The notes: generated by a model from the sequence alone, not told the origin. 64,000 nucleotides of DNA from Nitrospirota bacterium (GCA_963701855.1 CAVPBK010000006.1:1504001-1568000), one strand, 5' to 3'; numbered from the stretch's first letter, positions 3,814 through 58,148 are shown. Made by a program: numbers and translations.

Positions 3814-4007
3814 TGTGATAATTTTGTGCTACAAAGCTTCACAAACGACCGAATTCAGTAGAACCAATGGAATCAGTAGAACACTAGCAAGCCCATGATT
3901 TTCAACGATAAACGGGGAAACCTTCGCAACATCGAGCGGTTCGAATTATTGCCCTGCTGCCACTCTTAATCAGCGGGCCGTAGGTTCGACCCCTACACGG
4001 CCCACCA
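3814..4007 (+). repeat. att-like site: ~150-bp arm + tRNA-Lys(CTT) 3' half (3963-4007)
   Basis: CTCTTAA loop, TCAGC, T-arm GTAGGTTCGACCCCTAC, ends CCA; no 5' half; collinear with 13719-13912. Confidence 0.9.
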
Positions 4008-4175
4008 AACCTCGCTTGCGCGTGCCGGCGGCTATTCAGGCGAAGCCTCTCTTCATTGACGCCGCCGGATAACCCCCTCCAGTAGACCTGTCTTTGTAGG
4101 CAGTAAAACAGAGAAAATATATTTTTCTGCCCCCCTGCTGGGCTTTGAATCTAACAGCCTGTGGAAAAACTATGT

Positions 4176-4266
4176 TGGTTTTGCTGGTCTATCTGGCTTC
4201 TCTGGTTCTTGTGGTGGGGCATCCGATCCGGGCAACTAGACAAACGAGACAGACCAGATAGACCAG
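4176..4266. repeat. 9-bp-periodic palindromic element
   Basis: CTGGTCTATCTGG ... CCAGATAGACCAG arms. Confidence 0.75.
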
Positions 4267-4445
4267 CCCCCACGTCTCACTCGTCCCGCCTGTCTCGCTC
4301 GTCGAACTTTCACGAGATCGTACCGTGCCATACAACCCAACCACTGCACGGGAATCTCCTCCTTGCGATAGGCCCGCTGAATGGATTTCGGGCTCATGCG
4401 GAGTTCCGCGGCCAATTCCTTCATCGTGAGCAACTCCTTCTTCAT
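4236..4445 (-). pseudogene. Excisionase/HTH_17-like DNA-binding protein; C-terminus runs into the palindrome
   Basis: MKKELLTMKELAAELRMSPKSIQRAYRKEEIP...ARYDL; AAAGGA upstream; next to an att site. Confidence 0.7.
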
Positions 4446-4519
4446 GCCCAGTCCTTTCTGATGGTGCGGCTCAGCACGGGGCTGACCCAACCCTGAGCCA
4501 AGCCGGCTTTGCGGTCGAT

Positions 4520-5827
4520 ATGGCCTGTGATGGCACAGAAGCCCTGAGCAAGGCCAATGCGGGAACGTACGATACTGTGTTGAGCGATATCCGCATGATC
4601 CCGTGTTCCGGTTTGGATCTTTTGGATTCGATTCGCAAGACCATGCCGGAGCTGCCCATCGTGCTCTTGACCGCGTTCGGCTCGGTCGACACTGCCATCC
4701 AAGCCATGAAGCAAGGAGCATTCGATTACATCGCCAAGCCCGTGAATCTTGACGAACTCATCCTCACCATAAAGCGAGCCGTCAAGCATCGGCGTCTGAT
4801 AGAGAACACTCGCACGCCTAAGCGTGCGTTTAATGAACAGTCGCGGGCCGCCTCTTTGATCGGACAAAGCAAGCAAATGGTCGAGGTCTTCAAACTTATT
4901 GGAAAGGTCTCTCACAGCCGGACAGCCGTACTGATTCAGGGTGAGAGCGGCACCGGCAAAGAATTAATCGCCCGCGCAATCCACGATAACAGCCCGCGTG
5001 CGACTTACCGATTTGTCCCCATCAACTGTAGTGCGATTCCAGATACCTTGCTCGAAAGCGAACTCTTCGGTCACACGAAGGGTTCGTTCACCGGTGCTCA
5101 CACGATGCGGCGTGGATTGCTTGAGGACGCGAGCGGTGGCACGTTCTTTTTGGACGAAGTCGGCGATCTCTCTCCGGCCGGACAGGCAAAACTTCTCCGC
5201 GTCCTCCAAGAAGGTGAAATCCGAAGGATTGGAAGCAACGAGTCGGTACGCGTAGATTTGCGGGTTATTGCAGCCTCGCGCCGAAATCTCGCCCAACTGG
5301 TAGCGACCGGCCGGTTTCGTGAGGATCTGCTCTACCGGCTGAACACGGTCATGGTTCTCCTGCCTCCACTTCGGGAACGGCATGAAGATATTCCCTTGCT
5401 GGCAGAATTCTTTCTCGCAAAGTATGGCGACAAGAAGGAAGTTCCTGTCACGTCTTTTTCATCCGCCACGATGAGCGCGCTGACTGAATATTCCTGGCCG
5501 GGGAACGTGCGTGAGTTAGAACACGTCGTTGAACGGGCAGTGGCGCTGGCCTCGCAGGCTATTCTCTCAATCGAGGATCTCCCACCTGAAGTCATTCAGA
5601 AAGACGGAGAAGCTTCGGATCAGAGTGACATCTTCCTCGGCACGCTCAAAGCGCTGCGGCGGGAACAAGTGCTAAAAATTCTGGAATCAACCCATGGCAA
5701 CAAAGAGCGGACGGCTCGTTTACTCGGTATCAGCAGACGAACGCTCTACCGACTCCTCGAACAATACGGGCTCGGCAAAACTAAATCTTCGACCGAAGCT
5801 GACACTTCGAATCCTGTCGGTTCCTGA
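4520..5827 (+). CDS. NtrC/AtoC-family sigma54 response regulator, receiver N-terminally truncated
   Basis: [35 protein letters not shown], Fis-type HTH; first receiver strand (..DD) missing. Confidence 0.9.
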   Translation: MACDGTEALSKANAGTYDTVLSDIRMIPCSGLDLLDSIRKTMPELPIVLLTAFGSVDTAIQAMKQGAFDYIAKPVNLDELILTIKRAVKHRRLIENTRTPKRAFNEQSRAASLIGQSKQMVEVFKLIGKVSHSRTAVLIQGESGTGKELIARAIHDNSPRATYRFVPINCSAIPDTLLESELFGHTKGSFTGAHTMRRGLLEDASGGTFFLDEVGDLSPAGQAKLLRVLQEGEIRRIGSNESVRVDLRVIAASRRNLAQLVATGRFREDLLYRLNTVMVLLPPLRERHEDIPLLAEFFLAKYGDKKEVPVTSFSSATMSALTEYSWPGNVRELEHVVERAVALASQAILSIEDLPPEVIQKDGEASDQSDIFLGTLKALRREQVLKILESTHGNKERTARLLGISRRTLYRLLEQYGLGKTKSSTEADTSNPVGS

Positions 5828-6180
5828 TATCCGCCCGCCCATCATTTCGACGAAGTTTCTATCATTATCGGTCAAAGTGAATATGGCGCCGGCAAAAGTC
5901 TTGACGATATAGAGACCTGCCCCGCCCTGGATGACCACTCCTTCAACCGTTTTATGGCCAGATCATGCGGCGTCGGCCATTTGGTGAGAGAGCTCGCGTG
6001 GGCAATCTGTCCAGGCACAGACAATCTGTCGTTCGGGAGACATTCCTTCGAAAACACGCCGTTCGGCTGTTTGTCGTGGAACACCTGGGACAAGCTATGC
6101 GGTGGGCATCCCTCTGCCCCTTGAAGAGAGAAATGTCATATGTGTCCGAAAAATGGACCTCGGCTGTCATTGGTGGCCAA

Positions 6181-6196
6181 TGGTATCCCCTTTGCT
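6181..6196 (+). promoter_or_regulatory. Putative sigma54 -24/-12 promoter
   Basis: TGGTATCCCCTTTGCT (GG-N10-GC), downstream of a bEBP gene and 60 bp before ORF 6257. Confidence 0.55.
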
Positions 6197-6256
6197 CACG
6201 GTAACTGATACGCACGTCAGAAAATTAGGTCACGACATCATAACGAGGAGGTATTC

Positions 6257-6571
6257 ATGACATCCATTCCCAAAATTACCGGGGTCATGCTCTGTGGTGT
6301 CACCCTCTATCTGAGTATGCCTCAGGCTGCGCTGGCCATCAATAATTATGCGGAGGAACCATCAGAGAGCACTCACACCATCCAGGGGGAAGTATTGGAC
6401 GTTGGAGGCAATCTCTTTTTAGTTAGGGAACAGGATGGTGGGCTGATCGTGTTGCATACCGACAAGAACACCCAGGGGACTGAAACCGTAAGCCGGGGAG
6501 ATCAGATTGAAGCGAAAGTAAGCGACGTAGATGATCTGACGATCGTGCTGTCGATTCGCGAGATGAATTAG
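6257..6571 (+). CDS. Small secreted beta-barrel (OB-fold-like) protein, paralog family
   Basis: GAGGAGG RBS, signal peptide, TIQGEVL...GDQIEAKV. Confidence 0.75.
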   Translation: MTSIPKITGVMLCGVTLYLSMPQAALAINNYAEEPSESTHTIQGEVLDVGGNLFLVREQDGGLIVLHTDKNTQGTETVSRGDQIEAKVSDVDDLTIVLSIREMN

Positions 6572-6759
6572 TGACATCGCGCGATTTACGGTGGGGCCTG
6601 GTCACGCGAGGAAATATTCAGTTGGCATTCCGTACGGACAAGACGACCTGGATGATTGGGTACCTCAAAATGGGTAATCGTTAAGTCTTCGTCGCTGACC
6701 AGAATTGCTTTGCTCGCCTTGGCGGCTAATCGGTTAACCTGTGGACAATTTGTCTCGCA

Positions 6760-6830
6760 TCAGGTGAAAACTTCTTCACGTTCGCTTCATCATTATTTCA
6801 TGTCCGGCTCGTAGACTTTGTTCATCTCGT
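6760..6830 (+). promoter_or_regulatory. Conserved upstream element with three TTCAY repeats at 11-bp spacing
   Basis: TTCAC/TTCAT at 6775, 6786, 6797; homologous block at 8614-8680. Confidence 0.55.
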
Positions 6831-6862
6831 CAAGAGAGTCCACATTAACCGAGGAGGTAATC

Positions 6863-7222
6863 ATGGTCTCCATTCCCAAAATCATCGGGGCCATTTCGTG
6901 CGGTGTCGTGCTGAGTCTGGCTCTGACCAGTGTCACGCAAGCATTTGACCCTAACCCCTGTGCGATGAGGAAGGGCGGACTGCCGAATCTTCTCCTGTGT
7001 AGTGAGGAAAAACAGCAGGGCATCCAAACCATTAAGGGGGAGGTGTTGCGCGTAGACGGTGATACGCTCGTCGTTGAGCGCTTTAATGGGCAGGAAGTAC
7101 AGTTGCCAGTCACCGCAGCCCTTAGAAACGGCCACATATTTGAGCCAGGAGATTGGATTGAGGCGAAACTAGCCGACGTAAATCATGAGGCGCAGGTGCT
7201 GTCAATTCACGAGATCAACTAA
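6863..7222 (+). CDS. Small secreted beta-barrel (OB-fold-like) protein, paralog family
   Basis: GAGGAGG RBS; MVSIPKIIGAISCG.., TIKGEVL..GDWIEAK. Confidence 0.75.
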   Translation: MVSIPKIIGAISCGVVLSLALTSVTQAFDPNPCAMRKGGLPNLLLCSEEKQQGIQTIKGEVLRVDGDTLVVERFNGQEVQLPVTAALRNGHIFEPGDWIEAKLADVNHEAQVLSIHEIN

Positions 7223-7311
7223 TGCATCGTGATGGGACAGGCTAACCGAGGACACACCCGGTTGGCCTGCCTTCGCTCTATCAGGATTCTCCCGTAGGAG
7301 TGGAAAGGAGA

Positions 7312-7521
7312 ATGGAGCCATGGCGTATACGGAAAAATATTGTGAGGAGTGCAGTCGGAAGCTATCGCGGAAAGACCGGTCGCCAGAGGCGACGGCGTTT
7401 TATTAACGCGTGTCAGTCCACCGACGGAAACACGGTTCGCTTTAGAAAAGTGCTCGTAGAGAAAGACGGGGTCTGTTTCGCGTGTGGACAGAGAGATCAA
7501 GTGATGTATTACGAACTGTAA
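7312..7521 (+). CDS. Small basic hypothetical protein with CxxC
   Basis: AAGGAG RBS; CFACG. Confidence 0.45.
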   Translation: MEPWRIRKNIVRSAVGSYRGKTGRQRRRRFINACQSTDGNTVRFRKVLVEKDGVCFACGQRDQVMYYEL

Positions 7522-8613
7522 TCCCACCGACACTGCAGTTTCAGTCAAGAGGTGCGGTATGTGTGCTGTGTGGCATTGTCATAGTTGGATCTTCAGCGTC
7601 GCGATCGAGCTGTTGATATTCAGTCTTCTCATGGCATGCGGAACGCTTGTGAGTGGGTTGGTCTGCAGGATCTGGGGGGAAGTCCGTGATGACCACCCTC
7701 CCATCAGCCGCCAAGAGTAGAACGGCGAACGAGCTTCCGATGTCCAAAGCGGCTTGATTGGGTGCCTCGACCCTGTGAAGCTGCTTTTCACCGAGCAGTC
7801 AATGCCGCTGAAGCGGAAACGCTCCAACCAGGTCAGCATCACCCACTGAGATAGAACCGTCTGTCCTGAACTCGGGGAGATGCTGTCCAACGAACGCAGA
7901 ATGTCAGCGCAGGAGAAACGCTACCACCACAATGATGGAAGAAGGGGTGTGACAAGGTTGCATATGGACAACAGGCTTCTTGGTCCCGATGATGGTGGGA
8001 TCGGTCCTCGCCAAGAGGCTGTCAGCCTTGCTACTGCTTGCGTATCAGCGGGCCGGAGGAATCGCCGAGCGAGTTCAATGCCCTAGCTGGTCCGGCTACT
8101 GCGAAGCTACCAAACCTCCTCTATTGCTCTCCATGATGAGGAAAGTTCTACTACGAGAGAAAGTGCGAAAAAGTTACTCCAGGGAAGGCCACAAAACCTC
8201 TGATCTAGAAACAGCGGTGTACTGGATCTGGCAGACTGATTCTTCAGGAGTTTAAGGATCATAATTCTTACAAGATTTCTGGAAGGCTGACCTGCGGTTT
8301 ACAAACTTGATTCAGCCCAATCTGACACGACCCACGCGGAGCTAACCCAAGGTAAAACTGACGAATCTGAAGAACCATCCTCTTGATGGATCGGGATTGC
8401 TTGGCCTGTTCCGGTAGCAGCGTGGTAGCAGACGACGATAACGGGGCCCGCTGATTAAGCGTGACAAATAGCCTTTTCTCACAAACCTCGCTATTGCAAC
8501 GGTTTCCCCATATTCCCGTCCCTCTCACATAAATCATCAGGATTATGACGCCGCATTTGAGCGCAACTAGGGTAGCTACTAGTTTGCTCATCCACGGACA
8601 TCTTATTTCGTAA

Positions 8614-8680
8614 TCAGATGAAAACTTCTTCATGGTCGCTTCATCATGGATTCATGCTCGGTTCGTATATTTTCATGTGC
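8614..8680 (+). promoter_or_regulatory. Second copy of the 11-bp-spaced TTCAT element
   Basis: TTCAT at 8629, 8640, 8651. Confidence 0.55.
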
Positions 8681-8789
8681 AAGAGCGTGCGACCGACGGG
8701 CTGGTTTTATCGGTCGAGCCATGGTTTGCGAAGATAATTCATTCAACAGGACCGTAGGCAAGCGGACCACGACATCAGAGGAGGAAATT

Positions 8790-9227
8790 ATGGCTACGTT
8801 AGTGAGACCGGGAGTTCCTGCCGAGGGATTTAAGGCTGTCGGACAAATTCATGCCACGAATGACTTGGTGTTTCAACGGACCCACAACGCGATGGGCGTC
8901 GCCGTCGAATTACTGACGACGCACACAGCAGGCGCGCCAGTGGTGGATGAACAGGGCGAGTTCATCGGCTTTGTCAGTGAGTTCGACATCCTTCGTGCAC
9001 TTGAGGCGAAGAAGGATTTGAACCGGTTGACAGCCGAAGACGTCATGGCCAAGGAACATATTTCGGTGACGAACGCGACCAGCATTGACGAGGCCGTGAA
9101 GATCATGGAGGAGAACCGACTCCTGAGCCTGCCGGTAATAGCAAACGGCAAAGTAACCCATTCGATTACGCGGCACGACCTACTACGGGCCTGGATCGGC
9201 CTTGGCATGGACATCGAAACCTCATAA
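8790..9227 (+). CDS. CBS-pair protein
   Basis: GAPVVD..G.FIGFVSEFDIL and LPVI..GKV..SITRHDLL; GAGGAGG RBS. Confidence 0.9.
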   Translation: MATLVRPGVPAEGFKAVGQIHATNDLVFQRTHNAMGVAVELLTTHTAGAPVVDEQGEFIGFVSEFDILRALEAKKDLNRLTAEDVMAKEHISVTNATSIDEAVKIMEENRLLSLPVIANGKVTHSITRHDLLRAWIGLGMDIETS

Positions 9228-9432
9228 CGGAATGAGCGCCCCAACCCTCTTTGCACAGAGGTATGGCCATCTGTGGTGTCTTCGACGATGCTGAATGCAT
9301 CTCTCGAGTCCGTGAGTACGGCTAATAGCTCCAAAGGGTGATCGCGTCCCCAGAGGTCTTGGTTCGCTGCTGTGCTGAGAAGCTGACCTATCAAGGCGAA
9401 ATGGTTCAGGCCTTTGCGAAGGACGGTGCTGA

Positions 9433-10419
9433 GTGCACATCCGGACGTTGATGTGTGTGCTCCTGTTGGGCCTCGCCTCAGGGTGTGCCACGGGATCAGA
9501 TCCTCTTGTTCATCCCGAGGTCGTGGACCGTCGGTGCGGGCCGATCTCACCCCTTCACCGATCTGTCAATCAAAACCTCCCTCGCGCGCATGCTGCCTCG
9601 GAGAGGCCTCCGATCGATCCTGCTGTGCTTGCCGGGCGATTTTCTCCGCAATCCCAGAGTATCGCCGACAGTATCGGCGTCAAAGATCTCCTCGCGCAAC
9701 TGACGATTCTGAAGGCAGAGGCGGATCAACATGGTGGGGCCATGACCATCGAACGCCTTCACGTGCAGCAACAGCTCTCGAATCGCATATTACTGGCCTT
9801 TCTGGATGTCGCCAGAGCCGCTGCCGAAGCCGATTGCGAAGAAGAACGAGCCGATCAGCTTGCGGATGGGTTGCACGAGGTGCGTGACAAACGCATTCGA
9901 CAATACACACTCATCGCCATCGTGGGTGATGCCATGATCGGCATCGTCGCTGGCGCATTGGAACTCGCATTGCAAGAAACGGCCGCAGCCGCCGCTGCGA
10001 TATTCGGAGGCAGTGTGGCAACATGGTTCGGCCTGTCTGCTTTTTTCGACGACACCCACTATGACTTTCGACACGCGCGTAACCTCTTGCAGGAGGTGTG
10101 GATGGCGCCTGAAGAACCAGCGCTGATTCCTCCTTCAGTATGGCGGCACTTGACCCGTCCGTTACCCGACGATCCTGCGCAGCGGTCCTTACGAGAATCC
10201 CTCATCATCCGCTGGCGTCAAGACGGTCGGTTTGGGGAGGCAGGTTCGGAGCTGGAGCAGCGTCGTACGGCTCTGTTTTTTGGTGAGGGAGGCTCCTATG
10301 AGATTGAAGACCTTCGTGCTCGAGCCGCCATGTTGGATCTTCTCGAATCCGACATCAATCTCATGAGCCAAGATCTCGAACGACTCATGGAAGAAGTACT
10401 CCTACTCAATGACTCGTGA
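9433..10419 (+). CDS. Hypothetical lipoprotein/membrane protein
   Basis: LASGC lipobox, helical body, hydrophobic hairpin. Confidence 0.7.
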   Translation: MHIRTLMCVLLLGLASGCATGSDPLVHPEVVDRRCGPISPLHRSVNQNLPRAHAASERPPIDPAVLAGRFSPQSQSIADSIGVKDLLAQLTILKAEADQHGGAMTIERLHVQQQLSNRILLAFLDVARAAAEADCEEERADQLADGLHEVRDKRIRQYTLIAIVGDAMIGIVAGALELALQETAAAAAAIFGGSVATWFGLSAFFDDTHYDFRHARNLLQEVWMAPEEPALIPPSVWRHLTRPLPDDPAQRSLRESLIIRWRQDGRFGEAGSELEQRRTALFFGEGGSYEIEDLRARAAMLDLLESDINLMSQDLERLMEEVLLLNDS

Positions 10420-10462
10420 GGACAGGCGTTGGTTCGTTCGGTTTGAAGCGTGTCCCCATGCG

Positions 10463-10678
10463 TTACGGGAATCCACTACCAGTCATCGTGCATTCACCCG
10501 ATGACGGGAGGGCCCCCGTAGCACGAGTGGTATGAGCCCCTGAGCCGGAACATGGATCAATCTTCCCGCTGTCAGAACGCAGGGTGGAATCACTCGGCGT
10601 TGTCTCTAAGATACCGCAGGATTGGAGCGACAGGACTGTCAGAATGAGCCCGCAGACTAACCATCGTGTCGATGTCAT
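10463..10678 (-). CDS. Small lipoprotein
   Basis: GGGAGG RBS; LSLQSC lipobox. Confidence 0.6.
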   Translation of the reverse strand: MTSTRWLVCGLILTVLSLQSCGILETTPSDSTLRSDSGKIDPCSGSGAHTTRATGALPSSGECTMTGSGFP

Positions 10679-11073
10679 GGTGACCTCCCGGGCAATTAAT
10701 CCTGAGAACTCGAATTGTAGAGATGGAGAGCCTCTTTGGTGAATCCGTTACGCACTCTCTACAGTTTCTACTCTACCCGCTCCGAAGAGTGAGGAGAACT
10801 GAGACGATTACTAGGTTTGTCCCTGTGCAATGTCGTAGATGTGACAGACGTGTTACTTCATCCAGCATAGTCGCTGAGCAGGGCTCCTAGTAGGAGCTCC
10901 AATGCACGGCTCTCATGGATTCTTTCCTTCGACAGGTTATTGGGGTGGTGCTTGTCGTCGTTTCGAATGTATCGACTTTCGAGAAGAATATCTGGTGCCG
11001 GAGAAACTGTTCGAGTTAACGGGTGAAAGTGGAAGAGTGGCCTGAATCACCGGCTGCGTTTGGATTCTAAGAT

Positions 11074-11100
11074 GGATAAACCGGGACATTCTACTTTTCC
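11074..11100 (+). repeat. Junction motif type 2 (ATAAACCGGGACATTCTACTTTT)
   Basis: Similar to 11816-11838 and 45485-45513. Confidence 0.6.
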
Positions 11101-11174
11101 TGCAGCGCCTGACCCGCTAGCACTGTTCTCCATGCGGGGAGTAGCCTGAGCCCACTGGTTGTTCTCCTGTTCGG

Positions 11175-11633
11175 ATGAGCGCCATGCGGAATGTCTTCTT
11201 CCTTCTCCTGCTGCTACTGCCGCTCTCCGTCCACGCGGAGGATATCGGCGAGCTGAGCGCGAATCCGTACAATCCTGATTCCACGTCCAATCCCTTCGGG
11301 GCTGGAAGTCCCTTCAAGCCGGACGGCCTGAACAATCCCTTCAGCCCCTACGGCAGTCCCTTCAGCAATCAATCCGCGACAAATCCCTTCGTTACCGATG
11401 CGCCTCGGCTCCTTGCTCGTCTCTCCGGTCTGTCTGGTCTCTTTGGTTTCTCTGGTTATTTTCCGGTCCGGTCAACAAGACAGACCAAATAGACTAGATA
11501 AACGAGATAGACCAGTTTCGTTTCTCCGTTCTCGCCGGACTCAATCAACAACCCCTACGGCGCCGGAAATCCTTACAGCCCCAGCAGTCCCACGAATCCC
11601 TACGGACGCAACCTTCGAATTGAAGGACGCTGA
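11175..11633 (+). pseudogene. NPYG/NPFG-repeat protein, copy 2, interrupted by a 111-bp palindrome (11412-11522)
   Basis: EDIGELSANPYNPDSTSNPFGAGSP...DAPRL | element | SPFSPDSINNPYGAGNP...IEGR*. Confidence 0.85.
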
Positions 11634-11671
11634 TCCAGCCGCTGAACCGCTTCGCGTGACCTCATGGCTGC

Positions 11672-11700
11672 TTGACACCTCCCTACGGACGGCCTAGCCT
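11672..11700 (+). promoter_or_regulatory. Putative sigma70 promoter TTGACA-17-TAGCCT in the conserved post-NPYG sequence
   Basis: TTGACACC conserved at 2354, 11672, 16959, 23193, 46086. Confidence 0.45.
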
Positions 11701-11863
11701 TGCCGATCATGCCGGGAGCACGTTACCAAACCTTCCGTCTGGGTGATCGCTCTGAACTACTTACAGAGCAGTTGCTGTCTGCCTTTGCATTCACAACCCG
11801 CGTTCCAGGGACCGGGAAACGGGGACATTCTACTTGTTCGGCATCGGCTGACATGCCAAGCGC

Positions 11864-12030
11864 ATGATTGCCGATGTGATCCTGCCCGATGGACTGAATC
11901 TCAATCAGAAACTCGTCAAGCAATGGTGGTGCTGGTGGTACCGGAAATATGCGTCGGCAGATACCACGTTAGAGAGGCTAGAGGCTGAAGCGAGGGAGGG
12001 ACGGAAGCAGAAGTGCGAGGACGCTAACGG
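11864..12030 (+). pseudogene. Thermonuclease (SNase) C-terminal remnant
   Basis: IADVILPDGLNLNQKLVKQ..CWWYRKYA..LE.EARE; matches 20610-21080. Confidence 0.8.
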
Positions 12031-12052
12031 GTTTATGGAAGCATCCGACCCG

Positions 12053-12358
12053 CTACGGATTTTTAGGAAAAACGCCCTTCTCTATGAGTTTTTTGTTGTA
12101 CGCGTCGGCGTCCATGGGGCAGAGAAAGAGGTCTCTAACTTCTTTTAGAGTCTCAAGCCGAAGCTGCATTCTCATTGGCTTCAGAAGTGTGTCCCCATAT
12201 GTCTTGTAGTTAGAACCATGGGAAGTATAGGTGTAGGCCCCAGTCCTCTTGCCGTTATACTCGTGATAAAAATATTTGTGGCTTGATTTAGCAGGATCTA
12301 GCACAAACCCTTTTTGGGGAAGAGTGCTTTCGATCTTATCCCGAGGAACCTGAGACAT
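12053..12358 (-). CDS. HicA-like toxin candidate
   Basis: L.QKGF....SSHKYFY..NGK....T.SHG pattern; last gene of a tight operon. Confidence 0.55.
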   Translation of the reverse strand: MSQVPRDKIESTLPQKGFVLDPAKSSHKYFYHEYNGKRTGAYTYTSHGSNYKTYGDTLLKPMRMQLRLETLKEVRDLFLCPMDADAYNKKLIEKGVFPKNP

Positions 12359-12360
12359 TC

Positions 12361-12771
12361 TCAGGCGGCCTCGGCTAGGAGATTTGAAAAAATGTTTTTC
12401 AAGCGGATGGCGTCGCCGATGACTTGGGAGTCCTCAAGGGATCGGTAGTACTGCCAGAAATGGACGATGTGGTGTTCTAAATCGAGAACAGCTTCTTCTA
12501 AACTTCCACCCGTCCCGACCACGTTAAGCGCTTCGTTTTCCGCGAAGAACCACGCACCATCTTGAGTAACGTTAATACCGATCGGTTTCGACGGCAAGTA
12601 AGTGTGGCCAGCAATCGTTAACTTCAACAGAGGAAATTTAAATGGCTTAAAGAGGGGTTCTGCTACCGTTGCCGCTTCCTCATAGGTCGGAGAGCCTGGT
12701 ATAGGACGGAAGTGCGCAGGAAATTCTCCAAGGATTTCATGAGCGCTACGCGTCGCGCCGACCATGGTCAT
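12361..12771 (-). CDS. HicB-like antitoxin candidate
   Basis: WFFAENEALNVVGTGGSLEEAVLDL pattern; overlaps upstream gene by 4 nt. Confidence 0.55.
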   Translation of the reverse strand: MTMVGATRSAHEILGEFPAHFRPIPGSPTYEEAATVAEPLFKPFKFPLLKLTIAGHTYLPSKPIGINVTQDGAWFFAENEALNVVGTGGSLEEAVLDLEHHIVHFWQYYRSLEDSQVIGDAIRLKNIFSNLLAEAA

Positions 12772-13469
12772 ATTTCCTCCCCCCTTATATAGTTGCGGTA
12801 CTCGTCCGTGATCATGCCCTCAAACATTTGTTTTGTTACGCTGTGGCTCTCTTCCAGATACGCCCCAATTTTACCAAAGACCAAATCCGATTGCATGGCA
12901 TAATCGAAATCCAAAAGGATGGCCTCGTGACTCTTGTCTTCCGCTAACATATGCTCGATGCGCGCGTTAATGATCCCGTTCCCAACCGGCGAGGCAAAGG
13001 CAAAATTCATCGTGGTGAAATTATCGGTAGCCGGGGGAGGTAACTGAAACCCCACCTTCAGGTATTCGCGCAACGGAATACTTCCTGCTTTAGGCACAAA
13101 CGGAATGGCGTTGACATAGCGCAGCCCCGTCCTCGTCAGCTTCTCGATTTTGAATGTTGTTCTAAAAATGGCCGCTATTCTTAGGACTTCCTCTTTGAAC
13201 GCGTCAAAACCGGGGTATTTCTTCGTGCTGTACGCGAGCTTGTTGATTGCGGTCATGATGGTCGCTTGATCATCCTCTTGCTTAAAATGATACAAGGCCA
13301 GTGCGGGGGCGTCTCCAGGTTGTAGCTTTGGGACATACACCTTTGGGTATTTATTGCGGACCAGCCGGAAGAATTCATCCCGGCGACATTCGACCGCCGG
13401 GTCTCCGGGGAAACGGATCTCAAAAGCAACGTCTATGAGGGGCTGATTGGGATACTGTTCTGCACTCAT
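12768..13469 (-). CDS. TIGR04255-family protein
   Basis: YPNQPLIDVAFEIRF, YPGF..FK, RTGLRYVN, ILLDFD, H...K.MFE.MIT. Confidence 0.85.
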   Translation of the reverse strand: MSAEQYPNQPLIDVAFEIRFPGDPAVECRRDEFFRLVRNKYPKVYVPKLQPGDAPALALYHFKQEDDQATIMTAINKLAYSTKKYPGFDAFKEEVLRIAAIFRTTFKIEKLTRTGLRYVNAIPFVPKAGSIPLREYLKVGFQLPPPATDNFTTMNFAFASPVGNGIINARIEHMLAEDKSHEAILLDFDYAMQSDLVFGKIGAYLEESHSVTKQMFEGMITDEYRNYIRGEEI

Positions 13470-13718
13470 CGTTTAAAACAGCATGGGCTAGCCGAGGGCG
13501 TTTGTCTAGCAGAGATTGAAGGGAAGATTAGCCGATGAAACCCGATACAGTCAAAATAATTGCGCACCTCTTGTGATCTTTTCACAAAAGCTATGTGGAT
13601 CACCCCTAGAGCCTCTGCACTGTGTCTATCGCCGTACAGGTCGGGTGCCTTTCACCATCACCATTGTCAGAAACTGTGTCTCAACGGAGGGGTTCACCCC
13701 AGGTTCACCCCATTGAGG

Positions 13719-13912
13719 TGTGCTAATTTTGTGCGGCAATTCTTCACAAACAACCGAATTCAGTAGAAGCCATGGAATCAGTAGAAAGCCAGCAAGCTCA
13801 TGATGTTCAACGATAAACGGGGAAACCTTCGCAACATCGAGCGGTTCGAATCATTGGCCTTCTGCCACTCTTAATCAGCGGGCCGTAGGTTCGACCCCTA
13901 CACGGCCCACCA
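13719..13912 (+). repeat. att-like site: arm + tRNA-Lys(CTT) 3' half (13868-13912)
   Basis: 45-nt fragment identical to 3963-4007; arm TGTGCTAATTTTGTGC; preceded by GGGGTTCACCCC. Confidence 0.9.
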
Positions 13913-13917
13913 AAAAA

Positions 13918-14229
13918 TCAACTACATAGCGAAGCACTAGCCGGAGAGTTATTGGCAGGTGTTATTACGGTGTTAGATTGGTAAGAATTTAGCTTCTTTG
14001 CTGCAAGGCGAAGATCAGCCTCGGAAACGGAATTGTACCGCTTGTGCATCTTCTCTGACTTGTGACCCACAATCTTCATCGCGGTCACGGTATCTACCCC
14101 TGCCCGTCTTAGATTCGTCGCTGCACAGTGCCGAAGGTCATGGAAACGCAAATTTTTGATCCCAGCCTTGCGGACAGCCGTACCAAATGACCGTTGTTTG
14201 GCGATCCACTCCATGGCCGCTGTGCCCAT
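13918..14229 (-). pseudogene. Tyrosine integrase, C-terminal remnant
   Basis: FHDLRH, IVGHKS..M..RY; converges on the tRNA fragment. Confidence 0.9.
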
Positions 14230-14268
14230 ATCCGCACTTCACCGAAGAGAACCCGTGAGGAAAACGCC

Positions 14269-14547
14269 ATGTTCAATCAAAATCATTTTGGAACTTGGGT
14301 GTATGTGTGTCTGCTCGTCGTGTTCTTTGGCTTCGGTTTGTTTATGACTGGAAAGGAGATCCACCACTGGGTGACGGCGCCCAGTGAACGCGAGCAGCGC
14401 GAAGCGATCTGGATGCGCCTGACAAATGGCGAGTTTAAGAGCTACCGCGATTGCGTCAACGGTCATAAGGAGATCAGCCTTCCAATCTTGAAGTATTGCC
14501 GCGAATGGCATCGAGAGGTAACGTTCTTTGAAGAGTCAGGAGACTAA
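14269..14547 (+). CDS. Small membrane-anchored hypothetical protein
   Basis: GAGG RBS; one N-terminal TM segment. Confidence 0.55.
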   Translation: MFNQNHFGTWVYVCLLVVFFGFGLFMTGKEIHHWVTAPSEREQREAIWMRLTNGEFKSYRDCVNGHKEISLPILKYCREWHREVTFFEESGD

Positions 14548-14724
14548 GCGAACTTGACGAGAGGCACTTTCCATTTTTATTTGATGGTCTCTCTATATCC
14601 CAAAAACGCTCAACCCACCGTGGGTCACAGGAAAAATGGCGGGAGCAGCGTCGGCTCAAACTCGCTGACTCCCTTGCGCCTTCCTGAACGTCCCTCATAC
14701 AATACGCCTCCCTGTGAGGCCTCT

Positions 14725-15057
14725 ATGCCCTTCACTATTCGTCCCTTCCATCGCTTCCCTGTGCAATGCTCCGTCACATACAACGCTGGGCCATTCCAAG
14801 GCCAAGGTACCGTATGGAATCTCTCGTGTTCTGGTTGGCGACTCTCTGGTGATCTGCCGATGCGACCAGGAGAAACCCTCTCGCTGACCGTTACGTTTCC
14901 GAATGAGCAACGGATCGAAGTACCGGAAGCGGTGGTGCGATGGTCGAGAGGGCAGGAGTTTGCGGTAGAAAATGTCGTGATCAAGCCCCAAACCCATGTT
15001 CGACTGAAGCACTACGTGAAGCGGTTGGTGCAGAGCTCAAGTCAGTTAGCGCCATGA
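14725..15057 (+). CDS. Stand-alone PilZ-domain protein
   Basis: RPFHRF, NLSCSGWR, AVVRWSRG. Confidence 0.85.
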   Translation: MPFTIRPFHRFPVQCSVTYNAGPFQGQGTVWNLSCSGWRLSGDLPMRPGETLSLTVTFPNEQRIEVPEAVVRWSRGQEFAVENVVIKPQTHVRLKHYVKRLVQSSSQLAP

Positions 15058-15107
15058 GTGACGAATGCCCGAGGAAAAGGCATCTTGAGCACGTATCAAG
15101 GTGTTTA

Positions 15108-15371
15108 ATGAAATGGCTGGTGCCCGTTGTTTTCATGTTTCTGTTAGTTGGCTGTCTCTCACATACTATGAGTTCGTGGGAAGGCAAGCACCGAGATGAC
15201 CTTATTCAGAAATGGGGCCCTCCCAATCAAGAAGCAACGCTCAGCAAAGGGGGAACCAGTCTGGTTTATATACAGACTTGGGCCAACCAGTATGGGGCCA
15301 ACACCTGCCGCATGGTTTTCAACACCGACGAGGGAGGCATTATTAAGTCTTGGTCATATTACGGCTGCTAA
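15108..15371 (+). CDS. Small lipoprotein
   Basis: LVGC lipobox; DLIQKWGPP. Confidence 0.7.
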   Translation: MKWLVPVVFMFLLVGCLSHTMSSWEGKHRDDLIQKWGPPNQEATLSKGGTSLVYIQTWANQYGANTCRMVFNTDEGGIIKSWSYYGC

Positions 15372-16639: not shown

Positions 16640-16649
16640 ATCTTCGACA

Positions 16650-47684: not shown

Positions 47685-47942
47685 GAGGCAGAAAAAGCGT
47701 GGTCTGACCCGAAGGATTCATTTGGTAACCGCTGAGATGAGCTGTTAACCGGCAGAGATGTATTGTTGTAAGCAAGCTTGATCGCTCTGTCAAGAGTCAA
47801 TCGTTTCGCCTTCCATCAGCCTATCTTGATGAAACCGTTTCACATGCAATGTGCTATACGCTAAAGTTTCCTGGCTTCAAAGTTCTCATACTATAGTGTC
47901 AATGCCAGAGTGTCTCACCCGAAGGGGTTCACCTCAACCAGG

Positions 47943-48094
47943 TGTGCTAATTTTGAGCTTCAATTCTTCACAAACGACCGAATTAGGTAGAAGCAATAGA
48001 ATCAGTAGAATCCCAGCAACTCATGGTTTTCAACGATAAACGGGGAAACCTTCGCTCCATCGATCGGTTAGTATCATCGGCCTTCTGTCACTCT
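47943..48094 (+). repeat. att-like arm truncated at the start of the anticodon loop
   Basis: Collinear with 13719-13871; homology stops at CACTCT. Confidence 0.85.
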
Positions 48095-52682: not shown

Positions 52683-52784
52683 TAAACTTCAGATATGAGA
52701 GCGAGCCGTTTCCTCCGTGAACTGTGCGCTGGCTCTCCTCTACCTGTGCGAGAGCCAACTTCATTTCAACAAGGAGGACACAAG

Positions 52785-53020
52785 ATGGCTACCAACAACA
52801 AACCGCGAATACGCTGCGATGCGGCAACATCAAGGCGACGATCTGACAGAACATCAGCGAGAACGGTCTGTTCTTCTCAACGACTTTCTCTCGCCCATTC
52901 AGGGATCAGTCCGGCGCGTGGCGCAATGGGACCTCGTTTGGCCACAATGCTCTTGAGGCGCTCGTCAGCGTTGCACGTGAAGCCAAGGAGTGGATTGCCG
53001 CTCACGCCTTGAAGGGCTGA
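52785..53020 (+). pseudogene. PC4/PUR-like gene copy with frameshift and stop
   Basis: Collinear with 20248-20484, including leader hairpin and 3' hairpin. Confidence 0.85.
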
Positions 53021-53144
53021 GCTGCTTCACTGGGAAGCCTCCGACATCCGGGGGCTTCCCTTTTATTTCGAATGAGTTTCTAGTAGAGAGTGGAGAAGGG
53101 ACACTGTGCGGATTATTCCAAGACTGGAACGGTTTCTTCCCTCA

Positions 53145-53809: not shown

Positions 53810-54001
53810 TGTGTTAATTTGTGCTGAAAATCTGCACAATGGATCGCATTCTACAGAATCAATGGAATGGATAGAATCGTCTCAAGTCCTTGTTCGCAAA
53901 GAAAAAACGGGGAAGCCTTCGCAAAATCAAGCCGGTGATATTTTATTCTTTTCGAGCTTTTAAGGCGAGGGTCCTGGGTTCGAGTCCCAGCCGGCTCACC
54001 A
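53810..54001 (+). repeat. att-like site: arm + tRNA-Lys(TTT) 3' half (53957-54001)
   Basis: CTTTTAA loop, GGCGA, CTGGGTTCGAGTCCCAG, ends CCA; no 5' half. Confidence 0.9.
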
Positions 54002-54499
54002 CATCTTTCAACAACTTCGATGCGTGCTGCTCGTCAGCCGATTCCTCGGGTACGGTTTTTGGTGCGGTTCCTAATCGGGTGAGACCCTCAACCGCATGGA
54101 ACAGGTGCGCCGGATGGGGCATTTTCGTACTTCGAAAATTTATAGAAAGTGAGCAATTGTGATCAGACAGATGTGATCCTACAGGCATAATGTTAGGTGC
54201 ATCAAAAGCTGTTTTCTTGCCAGGGGGCGGACATGCTTGCCAAAATCCATGTCAGCGGGTTGTCCTACTTTTGCACCGACGCTTCGTCAGGCCTTTATCC
54301 CGTTTGGCACGGAGGTGCTCGCACAAGTGGGTCCTCTCCCGAGACCGTCAAACATTAACGTGATGCGGGTCATAGGAGTTCACACTGATGGCGACGTTGA
54401 ATTCTCAGACCGTCCTGAATCAAGTCGAAGTATCCGCGATTCCGTCCGGTCAGAGAAACTGATGCTTGACTCCTTGAGAGCATCCGAGGGTGACAATCG

Positions 54500-56413: not shown

Positions 56414-56588
56414 GCCCGGGTCCGACTTGGATACTTTTGGTGATGTTGCTTGGGGAGTTTATACGAGCGATCCATATTGAGTTCGGCCTTTGCGTGTCGC
56501 TGTCCGCGATCTTCTGGATGGTGAGGAAGAACCTACTGCTGTCCAAGACAGGATTTACCCCACGACGATCAACTCAACCGGCGAAAAC

Positions 56589-56984
56589 ATGAATTGGCAT
56601 AGGTTGGCTTGGATGCAGCGTATTGCGGCGGCCGCGATCGTAGTATTTTGGATCACGTTCTGGGCAGATCATGACGGCGTACTCCCAGATGTCTTGGATT
56701 ATGAGTCGAATTTCTTCATCCCAGACCTAGTTTGGATCGCGGGACTCTTACTAACTGCCAGTTATTGGCTCAAGAACAACGACACTCGTGGGATTGTGGC
56801 AAGTTCTGCAGCGGCGGGCGGACTGGTTTTTCTGGGTCTACTGGACGTTCATTTTAACTGGCGCCACGGTCAATACGTCTCTTCACCCCAAGGTTGGCTC
56901 AACGTGGTTGTGAATGTCGGATGCATCTGGTTTGGCCTCTGGACCCTCGTCGTGATGATGCGCGGTTCTGTGAGGGAGAAGTGA
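56589..56984 (+). CDS. Four-TM membrane protein
   Basis: Hydrophobic pattern; YESNF.IPD; GTGA overlap with the SDR. Confidence 0.7.
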   Translation: MNWHRLAWMQRIAAAAIVVFWITFWADHDGVLPDVLDYESNFFIPDLVWIAGLLLTASYWLKNNDTRGIVASSAAAGGLVFLGLLDVHFNWRHGQYVSSPQGWLNVVVNVGCIWFGLWTLVVMMRGSVREK

Positions 56985-57859
56985 CGGAAAAGCGGATCCT
57001 AGTGACGGGAGCGTCATCCGGAATCGGCCGGGCTTGCGTCTTGCGATTGGCAGCTGCGGGCCACCGGGTGATTGGGGTGTCCCGATCGGAAATCGCGACC
57101 GATGCGAAGTCCGGCCCTGGGCCACTTTCCGGCAACATCGAGTACTTGCGGATGGACATCGCGGATGCGGATACAGTGCAGCAAACAGTGGAAGAAGCTG
57201 TCAGTAGGATGAGTCGGCTCGACGCGGTTATCAACTCGGCAGGCATCGCGGTAGCAGGATCGCTGGAGGATACGCCTCTGGAACTTGTACGCTCACAGAT
57301 GGAGACGAATCTGCTCGGGGCTATCTACTTGACGCGCGCAGCAGTACCGCATCTTCGCCGTAGTGCTCCCAGCTGCCTGATCCACGTTTCTTCTCTGGCT
57401 GGAGAAGTTGCGCTTCCGTATCAGGCGCTCTACTGTGCCACCAAATTCGGGCTGAATGGGTTATGCGAGGCGCTCCGCTACGAACTCGAGCCGCAAGGGA
57501 TTCGGGTAATATCGGTCCAGCCGGGCAGTGTACAAACGGAGCTGACTAAGAACCGTCAGACCGTTGCTGCCAGCGAGCCCTATCAGGCTTCGGCTAACGC
57601 AGCGCTGGCTGTAAACGATGCTGACGAGGAATCCGGAGTGGGTCCGGACGTAGTTGCTCAGATGGTGGAGGAAGCGATTTGCGATGAGAAGGCAATGGGG
57701 TGGCAAACCGTCGGTCACTTTAAGGAGCGGATAACTGTCCCCGCGCGGCGCCTATTGCCAGATCGCTGGTTTCGACGAATCATCGCATCTCATTACGCTA
57801 TTGCCTCGGCTCACTTCAAGCAACGCGCAGGGAAAGCACCGGATGACGAGGTGGGCTGA
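56981..57859 (+). CDS. Short-chain dehydrogenase/reductase
   Basis: TGASSGIG, NSAG, YCATK. Confidence 0.95.
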   Translation: MTEKRILVTGASSGIGRACVLRLAAAGHRVIGVSRSEIATDAKSGPGPLSGNIEYLRMDIADADTVQQTVEEAVSRMSRLDAVINSAGIAVAGSLEDTPLELVRSQMETNLLGAIYLTRAAVPHLRRSAPSCLIHVSSLAGEVALPYQALYCATKFGLNGLCEALRYELEPQGIRVISVQPGSVQTELTKNRQTVAASEPYQASANAALAVNDADEESGVGPDVVAQMVEEAICDEKAMGWQTVGHFKERITVPARRLLPDRWFRRIIASHYAIASAHFKQRAGKAPDDEVG

Positions 57860-57963
57860 CGCCAATTCAGCACCTCTTATAGTCAAAATTTGTGGGTTCT
57901 TGCGCTGTGGTGTTTCAGCATTTCACCCAGTCTGTCTCAACCGAGGGGTTCACCCCAAAGGGA

Positions 57964-58148
57964 TGTGCTAAATTCGTGCTAGAAATCTTCACAATGTGGA
58001 TCGCATTCTACAGAATCAATGGAATGGATAGAATCGTCTCAAGTCCTTGTTCGAAAAGAAAAACGGGGAAGCCTTCGCAAAATCAAGCCGGTGATATTTT
58101 AGTCTTTTCGAGCTTTTAAGGCGAGGGTCCTGGGTTCGAGTCCCAGCC
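57964..58148 (+). repeat. att-like site: arm + tRNA-Lys(TTT) fragment (58113-58148)
   Basis: Near-identical to 53810-53992; acceptor strand diverged; GGGGTTCACCCC upstream. Confidence 0.9.

Follow-up and report, generated by a model that had tools for sequence, protein, structure and literature searches.

How did 3′ halves of two different tRNA-Lys isoacceptors come to lie, displaced from their genes and directly behind copies of a shared ~150-nt sequence, along one stretch of a Nitrospirota genome? The window, i.e., the whole 64,000-nucleotide stretch of DNA analyzed here, contains five such copies, termed arms. These elements are very probably attachment-site junctions of genomic islands that belong to one family and were moved by lambda-type tyrosine integrases crossing over in the anticodon loop. 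Integrase scars at tRNA genes are an ordinary, well-known kind of genomic trace, and the arm family is a new case of that known kind.

Arms and Displaced tRNA Halves

The arms and the sequences that follow them are listed below.

3814..3961, + strand: arm c1, putative P arm of Lys-CTT type (nhmmer E = 3e-44; 92% identity with c2)
3962..4007, + strand: displaced tRNA-Lys(CTT) 3′ half behind c1, anticodon loop to CCA (46/46 against C6:1490159-1490204, the 3′ part of the intact gene)
4008..4088, + strand: flank after the c1 half, also present 3′ of the intact tRNA-Lys(CTT) (window 4004-4088 has 96% identity to C6:1490283-1490367)
13719..13866, + strand: arm c2, putative P arm of Lys-CTT type (nhmmer E = 3e-44)
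13867..13912, + strand: displaced tRNA-Lys(CTT) 3′ half behind c2 (46/46 against the intact gene, BLAST)
47943..48094, + strand: arm c3, ending in ACTCT, 4 nt into the loop, and followed by non-tRNA DNA (the leader of a sigma-54 activator gene)
53810..53956, + strand: arm c4, putative P arm of Lys-TTT type (94% identity with c5, ~73% with c1)
53957..54001, + strand: displaced tRNA-Lys(TTT) 3′ half behind c4 (45/45 against C2:11430-11386)
57964..58112, + strand: arm c5, putative P arm of Lys-TTT type (sequence reading, alignment and profile)
58113..58185, + strand: tRNA-Lys(TTT) 3′ half behind c5, plus ~28-45 nt resembling the native Lys(TTT) 3′ flank (89% over 73 nt against C2:11430-11358)

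Reading and alignment of the sequence confirmed what the initial annotation had described, namely five co-oriented arms of ~150 nt that share sequence (starts at 3814, 13719, 47943, 53810 and 57964). Likewise, all four tRNA halves open at the anticodon loop or 1 nt before it, with the loop heptamers at the positions originally given: CTCTTAA at 3963 and 13868, and CTTTTAA at 53957 and 58113. Specifically, identity with tRNA-Lys(CTT) in the c1 and c2 halves begins 1 nt ahead of the 7-nt loop. The c5 half itself spans 58113-58157, its acceptor strand having diverged or decayed, and the flank behind it recurs after intact or displaced Lys(TTT) halves in three further genomes (G020, G023 and G004). 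Sequence similar to the 4008..4088 flank is likewise found 3′ of arms in genome G012 and in public loci; this flank is probably integrase-side (P′) sequence of an older element.

The arm at 47943 does stop within the loop, as had been noted: c3 tracks c1 and c2 through ACTCT (48094) and diverges beyond it, and a public locus (L088) and a locus in genome G009 (L011) break at nearly the same point. The occurrence of CCCTCTTCCCTC after both c3 and a junction in genome G016 was considered as a shared flank and is taken as chance; blastn and tblastx gave no further homology.

Conserved Boxes Within and Ahead of the Arms

Conservation across the arms falls in blocks of fixed spacing, comprising TGTGCTAAWTTTGTGC, two AGTAGAA-type repeats and AAACGGGGAARCC, with GGGGTTCACCCC in some copies as well. 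The motif AAACGGGGAANCCTTCGC occurs five times in the window, always on the + strand and within an arm, and was matched in 0 of 100 shuffles. The palindrome box reported ahead of three arms, GGGGTTCACC(C/T)C, was found 5′ of c2, c3 and c5:

13689..13700, + strand: GGGGTTCACCCC box 5′ of arm c2, an optional upstream module
47924..47935, + strand: GGGGTTCACCTC box 5′ of arm c3
57945..57956, + strand: GGGGTTCACCCC box 5′ of arm c5

Genome-wide, the box has 22 matches (at most 1 mismatch), six of them just 5′ of arms, and it occupies that upstream position in 29 of 81 public loci. The arms open with TGTGCTAA repeats, which also occur on the integrase side of islands, and they are mosaic in that their upstream and core-proximal modules are exchangeable. 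The conserved blocks may be sites for the arm domain of an integrase and for accessory proteins.

Lambda-type attP sites contain arm-type and core-type integrase sites together with sites for accessory proteins. The arrangement described here resembles such an attP in its P arm of ~150-195 bp, its short direct repeats at helical spacing, the recurrence of the repeat on the P′ side near int, and the core between them; the sharing of one short repeat by the P and P′ arms, a lambda-type feature, is seen here at the level of sequence. In contrast to the lambda-type case, the sites here are proposed from conservation, with AAACGGGGAAACC and GGGGTTCACCCC as putative accessory boxes.

Multicopy intergenic elements of ~195 nt that end in a CCA-bearing T arm and acceptor strand might also be transcribed as functional RNAs, either as a tRNA-like chimera or as an sRNA with a tRNA-like 3′ end, and a stem of 7-9 bp can be drawn by eye around the loop in c1 and c2. 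This reading is nonetheless exceedingly improbable: no Rfam family reached its gathering score on the arms, the minimum free energy was unremarkable (z = -1.0, with 32 of 200 shuffles folding equally well), and an alignment of 40 arms yielded a consensus of -2.9 kcal/mol with six predicted pairs, 0 of which covary. Moreover, the tRNA part is cut at differing points among copies, and the 5′ acceptor strand is absent. The initial annotation had itself named two findings that would refute its proposal, namely a lack of intact tRNA-Lys genes matching the fragments and arms that are transcribed RNAs unrelated to integration; such intact genes are present (see below), and Rfam, single folds and the 40-arm alignment revealed no RNA structure. 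Among the sequencing runs listed for this DNA, none was of RNA. The Rfam scan of the window had a fluoride riboswitch as its sole match.

Intact tRNA Genes

ARAGORN detected no tRNA gene inside the window. Its whole-genome predictions include a + strand tRNA-Lys(CTT) gene (C6:1490129-1490204) that ends 13.8 kb upstream of where the window begins; the tRNA-Lys(TTT) gene, C2 c[11386-11461], belongs to a different contig. Intact genes for both isoacceptors are thus present, and by BLAST the c1 and c2 fragments match the first at 46/46 positions and the c4 fragment the second at 45/45. For Lys(CTT), an intact tRNA gene is followed downstream by co-oriented 3′ fragments, at 3962 and 13867, which is the signature used by Islander. 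The Lys(TTT) fragments behind c4 and c5 fall outside that signature, their gene being on a different contig.

Cognate Integrases and Complete Islands

The window contains no intact integrase, and its only recombinase is a remnant that reads toward a tRNA half:

13921..14229, - strand: integrase remnant of 103 aa, C-terminal part only (PF00589, E = 6e-13, profile positions 111-170 of 172)

Since this remnant is the sole integrase there, the array in the window is regarded as decayed. The remnant is the only one of the genome's 24 PF00589 matches to lie in the window, and it belongs to a clade other than the arm-cognate one, with 37.5% identity to the G012 integrase over 72 aa and its closest relatives elsewhere in the same genome.

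Complete units exist in related loci. For example, genome G012 has a tRNA-Lys(CTT) gene, a reverse-oriented 364-aa integrase (PF00589, E = 3.5e-38), a 35-kb island, and then an arm with a 46-nt half; the tRNA gene and the island end hold the sole two copies of that half in the genome. A second example comes from the genome studied here, where tRNA-Thr(CGT) is followed by a reverse-oriented integrase, 14.5 kb of island, and an arm with a 46-nt Thr half. This integrase has 67-75% identity to that of G012, and the TTCGTAA halves of this genome derive from Thr(CGT), not Arg(TCG). Genome G004 carries an integrase fragment beside tRNA-Lys(CTT), with 89% identity to the integrase of the cognate clade, and arms downstream. 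Finally, public locus L041 has an attP-like contiguous form, consisting of an arm, a Thr half, TGTGCTAA repeats and a reverse-oriented integrase of the cognate clade.

Taken by target, the clade (52-89% identity to the G012 integrase) sits at Lys(CTT) in G012 and G004, at Lys(TTT) in G016 and G001, and at Thr(CGT) in this genome, and in each of these related units the integrase lies inside the island. An alignment of five integrases retains the catalytic set HxxR (HDLRH), H (GH) and RY, in agreement with Pfam and PHROG matches. The genome studied here has three copies of the cognate clade, none demonstrably intact: a frameshifted gene, a piece of 164 aa, and a copy truncated where its contig stops. 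TGTGCT[AC] repeats, the motif with which the arms open, lie 45-81 nt past the tRNA end at 5/5 tRNA-proximal junctions with the cognate clade, and at one remnant; they are missing at two tRNA-Lys(CTT) genes without such an integrase. Because integrase-less arrays are common (e.g., the 39-kb array of genome G018, with three arms and no integrase), the link between arm and integrase rests on few loci. Among IMG/VR viral contigs, relatives of the integrase reached at most 37% identity over a long match, none with an arm or a tRNA, and the arm pattern gave 0 matches.

The abundance of integrase-less copies, the mosaic arms, and the position of c1 and c3 directly 5′ of sigma-54 activator genes might instead suggest a small non-autonomous repeat of MITE or REP type, or a portable promoter or regulatory module, with its own route of spread and a secondary link to tRNA. 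Against this stand the lack of terminal inverted repeats and target-site duplications, the recurrence of the arm motif on the opposite flank of the tRNA, beside the integrase gene, the complete units of tRNA, integrase, island, arm and half, and the finding, detailed below, that nearly all public arms finish at an anticodon-loop heptamer. In addition, scans for sigma-70 promoters and for terminators around c2 found none within the arm. An independently spreading repeat or module is accordingly considered very unlikely.

Proposed Assembly of the Array

Under the preferred reading, that of relic island junctions, each arm would be a P arm, the island end distal to the integrase gene (attR or attP-like). 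The attP of the element would hold a copy of the 3′ half of the target tRNA, with strand exchange taking place in the anticodon loop; integration would therefore restore a complete tRNA gene by joining the host 5′ half to the element 3′ half, and the original 3′ half would end up immediately 3′ of the arm, at the opposite end of the island. Through several rounds of integration, accompanied by decay, a co-oriented array could then arise downstream of tRNA-Lys(CTT), in which each arm with its half would represent an attR or an attP-like joint between neighboring relics. The copies in the window would be relics, mobile only with an integrase supplied in trans.

Neither an excision product nor an empty site was seen, and four soil-metagenome runs aligned to window positions 1500-17500 gave short contigs only. 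One contig (X1, depth 2.5) joins 13910 to 4095, a connection compatible with the c1-c2 block having been circularized or deleted, and another (X3, depth 2) connects 3853 with 13778 through 19 foreign letters; for both, related strains are an equally possible source.

Spread of the Arm Family and Its tRNA Targets

An arm-profile search of this genome returned 13 solid copies. In public genomes, an exact-pattern scan found at least 119 stretches, nearly all titled Nitrospira or Nitrospiraceae, in which the two boxes that form the pattern are invariant by construction. The arm leads into an anticodon-loop heptamer in 76 of 80 public arms, with 33 of Lys-CTT, 19 of Thr-CGT, 15 of Arg-CCT and 7 of Lys-TTT type, and two odd ones. 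Of the 80, 48 retain an intact T arm, and in 28 of the 76 with a heptamer the tRNA part is broken before or inside the T arm. The tRNA identity has a 5′ edge fixed at the loop and a variable 3′ edge, with c3 and L088 breaking within the loop itself. These patterns support the proposal of att-type junctions of tyrosine-integrase elements, with a crossover that would lie in the anticodon loop.

The initial annotation went further and proposed that related integrase systems had switched between Lys-CTT and Lys-TTT cores, which it described as 1 nt apart. The switching itself finds support in the single integrase clade that sits at both targets, and also at Thr(CGT), but the 1-nt difference is not the link: the remainder of the half differs in sequence, and halves of Arg(CCT) and Thr(CGT) likewise occur behind arms of this family. 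Because the family uses these two as well, target switching is real and wider than proposed. All four tRNAs share U36-A37-A38 in the loop and read ANN codons.

These observations invite a broader and rather unlikely scenario, in which a modular attP scaffold (constant boxes, with an exchangeable core-proximal module of ~45 nt and a tRNA half) moves one integrase clade among tRNAs sharing U36-A37-A38, and in which integrase-less gene blocks bounded by arms build up downstream of tRNA genes in Nitrospira-like genomes, forming an integron-like, trans-mobilized gene-capture array, with recombination between arrays at different tRNA loci reshuffling the chromosome.

Origin of the Lys(TTT) Junctions

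The two junctions of Lys(TTT) type do not fit a simple signature of tRNA gene and downstream fragment, since no tRNA-Lys(TTT) 5′ part lies upstream of c4 or c5 in the contig and the native locus on C2, with 163 nt of native flank, appears unoccupied. Most likely, c4 and c5 formed on a Lys(TTT) core, and their position behind the Lys(CTT) array may be due either to recombination of related islands with one another or to att-site accretion. That the two tRNA-Lys genes are natively adjacent was rejected; they lie on separate contigs in the six relatives compared (G003, G012, G015, G016, G018 and G023).

The initial annotation had suggested that earlier fragments were reused as landing sites. In its accretion form, this suggestion has Lys(TTT)-type elements entering an att site already in the array (an arm with a Lys(TTT) half and no tRNA 5′ part), thereby giving the c4-c5 tandem. 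It is a possible though not the favored course of events. It would account for a pair of Lys(TTT) junctions in the same orientation, separated by 4.2 kb and lacking any 5′ half upstream, for an unoccupied native locus, and for the presence of one such junction in G004 versus two in this genome; moreover, tandems are documented to arise when a new element integrates at the attR of a resident that has decayed (PMC5704250). However, formation of both junctions at the native tRNA-Lys(TTT), followed by relocation, would give the same picture, and ~28-45 nt of native Lys(TTT) flank are kept behind c5. Likewise, the Lys(TTT) junction of G004 is trailed by at least 160 nt of native Lys(TTT) flank, though it lies 9 kb behind tRNA-Lys(CTT).

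As for landing on a Lys(CTT) fragment, a Lys(TTT) half stands behind every one of the Lys(TTT)-type arms (c4, c5 and the C12:84245 copy), and Lys(CTT) sequence behind arms of the c1/c2 type. There is no evidence for a Lys(TTT) element having landed on a Lys(CTT) fragment, because no hybrid junction (a Lys-TTT arm with a Lys-CTT half, or the reverse) was seen among the copies read. Reuse of fragments thus stands as a mechanism established elsewhere that may explain the c4-c5 tandem, but its Lys(CTT) version is without support, and the arrangement in G004 points instead to a rearrangement between islands at two tRNA loci.

Comparison with Known Systems

Integration sites in tRNA genes were reportedly divided into classes by sublocation in the work of Williams in 2002.

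The Islander collection counts 2083 of 3919 islands with anticodon-centered sites, as well as 125 tandems (Hudson et al. 2015, PMC4383910). Its class 'A' is resembled here in the intact tRNA and co-oriented 3′ fragment at the island ends, the tRNA-adjacent tyrosine integrase, the fragment starting at the loop, and the tandem arrays. Unlike Islander islands, most units here are without an integrase and would fail the Islander integrase filter, c4 and c5 are unlinked to their own tRNA gene, and a single arm family is followed over at least four tRNA targets (PMC4383910).

CIMEs are decayed elements that keep their att sites and lose the genes for integration and transfer, and incoming elements integrate alongside them to form composite arrays (Pavlovic 2004 and Bellanger 2011, as summarized in PMC5704250). 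The block at 4008-13912 is CIME-like, with one of two identical 46-nt halves at either end and no recombinase encoded by its scanned ORFs, and so is the G018 array. Unlike the present loci, which are known as sequence, the CIME cases of PMC5704250 belong to streptococcal ICE/IME systems, for which excision and transfer have been demonstrated; the window showed no conjugation genes.

Finally, the co-oriented arrays, whose blocks are mostly promoter-less and recombinase-less and terminate in a conserved recombination site (~100-150 bp), bring integron attC sites to mind. Unlike attC sites, the arms are not imperfect palindromes (they have no significant fold) and each ends in a tRNA half; moreover, the blocks measure 4-34 kb, as against the single genes of integron cassettes. 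An integron attC array proper was rejected, the integrases being of generic phage type and scoring 27-60 bits versus integron-integrase cut-offs of 265-435.

Significance

Judging by titles and the openings of abstracts, none of the papers listed on Nitrospira genomic islands, integrases and tRNA (12 of 19) is about these sites. The current understanding of site-specific recombination is unchanged by them. For the organism, the ~70-kb stretch behind tRNA-Lys(CTT), in which GC content ranges from 0.49 to 0.62 relative to ~0.555 for the genome, would be explained as a patchwork of acquired and decayed islands. This reading helps in annotating the genomes of nitrite oxidizers and in interpreting their accessory genes, including those for sigma-54 regulators, transporters and c-di-GMP proteins. 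The family itself is a natural series, its related integrases and their att sites spanning at least four tRNA targets and its arm boxes being well defined, and should be useful for work on integrase specificity.

Arms, boxes and tRNA halves

The window has five arms in the same orientation, each about 150 nt long and here taken as proposed P arms (the island ends far from the integrase gene). All five were read and aligned, and behind four of them lies a tRNA 3′ half from the anticodon loop onward.

Arms in the window and the loops behind them (window coordinates)
3814: arm c1; 3963 (+): CTCTTAA loop, c1 half
13719: arm c2; 13868 (+): CTCTTAA loop, c2 half
47943: arm c3; agrees with c1 and c2 as far as ACTCT (48094), which falls within the loop sequence; the DNA beyond is unrelated
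53810: arm c4; 53957 (+): CTTTTAA loop, c4 half
57964: arm c5; 58113 (+): CTTTTAA loop, c5 half

In the alignment, all five arms start with TGTG(C/A/T)TAA-T-rich-GTGC and carry two AGTAGAA/ACAGAAT-type repeats separated by about two helical turns. Each also contains the box AAACGGGGAA(A/G)CCTTCGC, which occurs five times in the window, always within an arm, and had no match across 100 shuffles. A GGGGTTCACC(C/T)C box precedes c2, c3 and c5 by about 20 nt. The five arms, their loop start points, the box common to all and the palindrome before three of them had been described in the initial annotation, and reading and alignment confirmed every one. Judging from their sequence, the TGTGCTAA repeats are putative sites for the arm (N-terminal) domain of the integrase, and the AAACGGGGAAACC and GGGGTTCACCCC boxes putative accessory-protein sites; the arm repeats would resemble the arm-type sites of lambda att.

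One of the two outcomes named in the initial annotation as undoing its reading was that the arms are transcribed RNAs unrelated to integration junctions. The view that they represent an RNA gene rather than a recombination site fails: no arm had an Rfam match, the predicted fold of c2 plus its half shows no advantage over shuffles (z = -1.0), and the consensus of forty arms reaches -2.9 kcal/mol with six pairs, none of them covarying. Arm conservation instead falls in blocks at fixed spacing, the pattern expected of protein-binding DNA.

ARAGORN found no tRNA gene within the window, which spans C6:1504001-1568000 of the genome under study (G000). Intact genes of both tRNA-Lys types, whose absence would likewise have counted against the initial annotation, are nevertheless present in the genome, each as a sole copy:

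C6:1490129-1490204 (+): tRNA-Lys(CTT), 13.8 kb upstream of the window
C2 c[11386-11461] (complement): tRNA-Lys(TTT), on a contig other than that of the window

The c1 and c2 halves are identical to the tRNA-Lys(CTT) gene at 46/46 positions and the c4 half to the tRNA-Lys(TTT) gene at 45/45, while the acceptor strand of the c5 half has decayed. Directly behind tRNA-Lys(CTT), just upstream of the window, sits a 1.2-kb mini-island (G000:C6:1490205-1491430) with an HTH_37/Gp49 (HigB-like) toxin-antitoxin pair; it ends with a 27-nt copy of the tRNA T-arm region, a sublocation unlike that of the arms. Another arm family, unrelated to the first and marked by GGTGCCAA repeats (G000:C7:22850-23052 and C9:511270-511476), likewise stops precisely at the anticodon loop of Lys(CTT), with the 3′ half attached. 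Within one genome, tRNA-Lys(CTT) is thus a target of at least three integrase lineages.

An arm family with several tRNA partners

A profile built from the five arms gave 16 matches across the genome, of which 13 reach E <= 1e-5. Public sequences were scanned with an exact two-box pattern, one genome per species, giving at least 119 stretches, nearly all under titles that name Nitrospira or Nitrospiraceae, while a few, among metagenome bins, bear other names; the two boxes are invariant in these loci by construction of the scan. Loops were counted on 80 public arms among the matches listed, after one short partial match was dropped.

Loops behind arms in the genome (13 arms) and in public sequences (80 arms, among the matches listed)
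Lys(CTT): genome 2/13; public 33/80
Lys(TTT): genome 2/13, plus one copy with a mutated loop; public 7/80, an undercount because arms of the c4/c5 type have GGGGAAGCC and so escape the pattern
Arg(CCT): genome 4/13; public 15/80
Thr(CGT): genome 1/13, and a further Thr-like copy whose loop is mutated; public 19/80
Odd loops: public 2/80
None: genome 2/13 without tRNA sequence (c3 and a truncated arm on C7); public 4/80 without a loop

The Thr(CGT) loop reads TTCGTAA, and the half that carries it matches the Thr gene at C6 c[433787-433862] without a difference. YTNNTAA describes all four loops. In the copies read, tRNA identity always has its 5′ edge at the loop, and its 3′ edge lies anywhere from 5 nt to the full half; the T arm is intact in 48 of the 80 public arms among the matches listed. 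The arms are mosaic: in the one at C5:91383, for example, the 5′ part is of Lys(TTT) type and the 3′ part of Arg type. In a locus of a related genome (L170, G010:C22, 6611-7775), two arms stand back to back on opposite strands with 870 nt between them. A Lys(CTT) half belongs to one of the two; the other is mosaic, and its loop reads ATTTTAA. This layout suggests inversion or opposed insertion.

Complete units and their integrases

In the related genome G012 the Lys(CTT) half occurs just twice. The first copy belongs to the intact tRNA gene, directly after which comes an integrase of 364 aa in reverse orientation (Phage_integrase, E = 3.5e-38, and Int_N); the second is 35 kb downstream, immediately behind an arm. 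On the Thr island of the genome under study, tRNA-Thr(CGT) is followed by a frameshift-split integrase 67-75% identical to that of G012, and an arm with a 46-nt Thr half lies 14.5 kb beyond it. In a second relative, G004, an integrase fragment 89% identical to the G012 protein adjoins tRNA-Lys(CTT), with arms downstream, and in G016 and G001 integrases 52-54% identical to it adjoin tRNA-Lys(TTT). The integrases of this clade keep HxxR, H and RY.

One short repeat flanking the core on both sides is a hallmark of arm-type integrase sites. TGTGCT[AC], a motif also found at the start of the arms, is repeated 45-81 nt past the tRNA end at 5/5 tRNA-proximal junctions with this clade and at one C12 remnant; the repeats are absent at two tRNA-Lys(CTT) genes that have no integrase of the clade. 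Finally, one public locus holds arm, Thr half, repeats and a reverse-oriented integrase of the clade in one piece, and this is an attP-like arrangement.

Adjoining the cognate integrase of G012, the stretch 1938-8398 of locus L013 (G012:C21) encodes a Zot-family ATPase, a Rep_trans initiator and an HTH_17 protein. The set resembles an integrated module of filamentous-phage-like or rolling-circle type, and beyond it come a PLD-SNF2 helicase and an Eco57I-type methylase.

The window as an array

Blocks of the array
tRNA-Lys(CTT) gene to c1: about 17.8 kb
c1-c2: 9.9 kb
c2-c3: 34 kb, opening with an integrase remnant
c3-c4: 5.9 kb
c4-c5: 4.2 kb

The remnant (window 13921-14229, 103 aa) belongs to a clade other than that of the arms, and no other recombinase was found among the 71 window ORFs scanned; the window holds 1 of the genome's 24 integrase-domain matches. 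Measured in 2-kb steps, GC content varies patchily between 0.49 and 0.62; the contigs have 0.55-0.56. Pieces of a 0.5-0.9-kb module (83-89% identity) recur in several blocks and in relatives' arrays:

Window 11076-11681
Window 22689-24111
Window 45488-46133
Window 52708-53062
G000:C6:1494662-1495591

In addition, DNA 340-480 nt past c1 matches island DNA that adjoins the HTH_17 gene, both in G012 and on the Thr island. The repeated module and this flanking match therefore mark the array blocks as decayed relatives. An array of three arms within 39 kb, with no integrase, was also found in the related genome G018. The arrangement corresponds to the tandem arrays of the Islander paper, which reports 125 tandems and 2083/3919 islands as anticodon-centred (PMC4383910), and to the CIMEs built by accretion described in PMC5704250.

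The window has further features. A sigma-54 response-regulator gene (window 4494-5859) has a duplicate of 99.5% identity at G000:C5:78497-79862, 11.5 kb upstream of the arm C5:91383. A 328-aa ORF with no assigned family (window 9460-10420) is 96% identical to a copy at G000:C12:94837-95797, which belongs to the C12 island region and has an Arg(CCT) junction on one side and a Lys(TTT) fragment on the other. Pfam, NCBIfam and PHROGs gave no match for a 306-aa ORF (22796-23713) that overlaps the module copy at 22689-24111. On the minus strand, at window 32102-32172, a fluoride riboswitch (RF01734, 59.3 bits, cut-off 34) precedes several minus-strand genes, in order a 105-aa ORF (31790-32104), a histidine phosphatase, a 598-aa ORF and an Na+/H+ exchanger family protein; neither the 105-aa nor the 598-aa ORF has a Pfam match.

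Origin of the Lys(TTT) junctions

Arms c4 and c5 do not lie behind their own tRNA gene. The C2 tRNA-Lys(TTT) gene looks unoccupied, because the 163 nt behind it correspond to the flank of a tRNA-Lys(TTT) gene that is unoccupied in the related genome G020. That a Lys(TTT) element landed on a Lys(CTT) fragment is not supported, since no copy read contains a hybrid junction. Junction c5 retains 28-45 nt of native tRNA-Lys(TTT) flank. G004 has the same order as the genome under study (tRNA-Lys(CTT), an arm with its Lys(CTT) half and, 3.2 kb further on, an arm and half of Lys(TTT) type), although it is a fragmented bin in which a chimeric contig is possible, whereas the present arrangement lies within a 1.6-Mb contig. 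At least 160 nt of native flank follow the G004 Lys(TTT) half, and its intact tRNA-Lys(TTT) is on another contig with other element DNA after it. This order and flank favour a scenario in which the Lys(TTT) junctions would have formed at the tRNA-Lys(TTT) gene and then been moved by recombination between related islands at both loci. Alternatively, the extra Lys(TTT) junction in the present genome could stem from accretion of a cassette at an arm-plus-half site already in place.

GGTA(G)CGGTTTT-type repeats occur at window 54070-54095, after the c4 half, and at G000:C12:93090-93130, before the Lys(TTT) fragment at C12:92966; they may be arm sites of a third element family targeting tRNA-Lys(TTT).

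Conclusions

By mechanism and membership, the system consists of tRNA-targeting tyrosine-integrase islands of the anticodon-loop class, mostly relics, and as such holds no surprise for a specialist. Among the listed papers on islands, integrases and tRNA in Nitrospira, none concerns these sites, judged by title. What is new is the arm and integrase family itself, in a nitrite-oxidiser lineage, together with its well-marked arm boxes and the use of at least four tRNA targets on a single arm scaffold.
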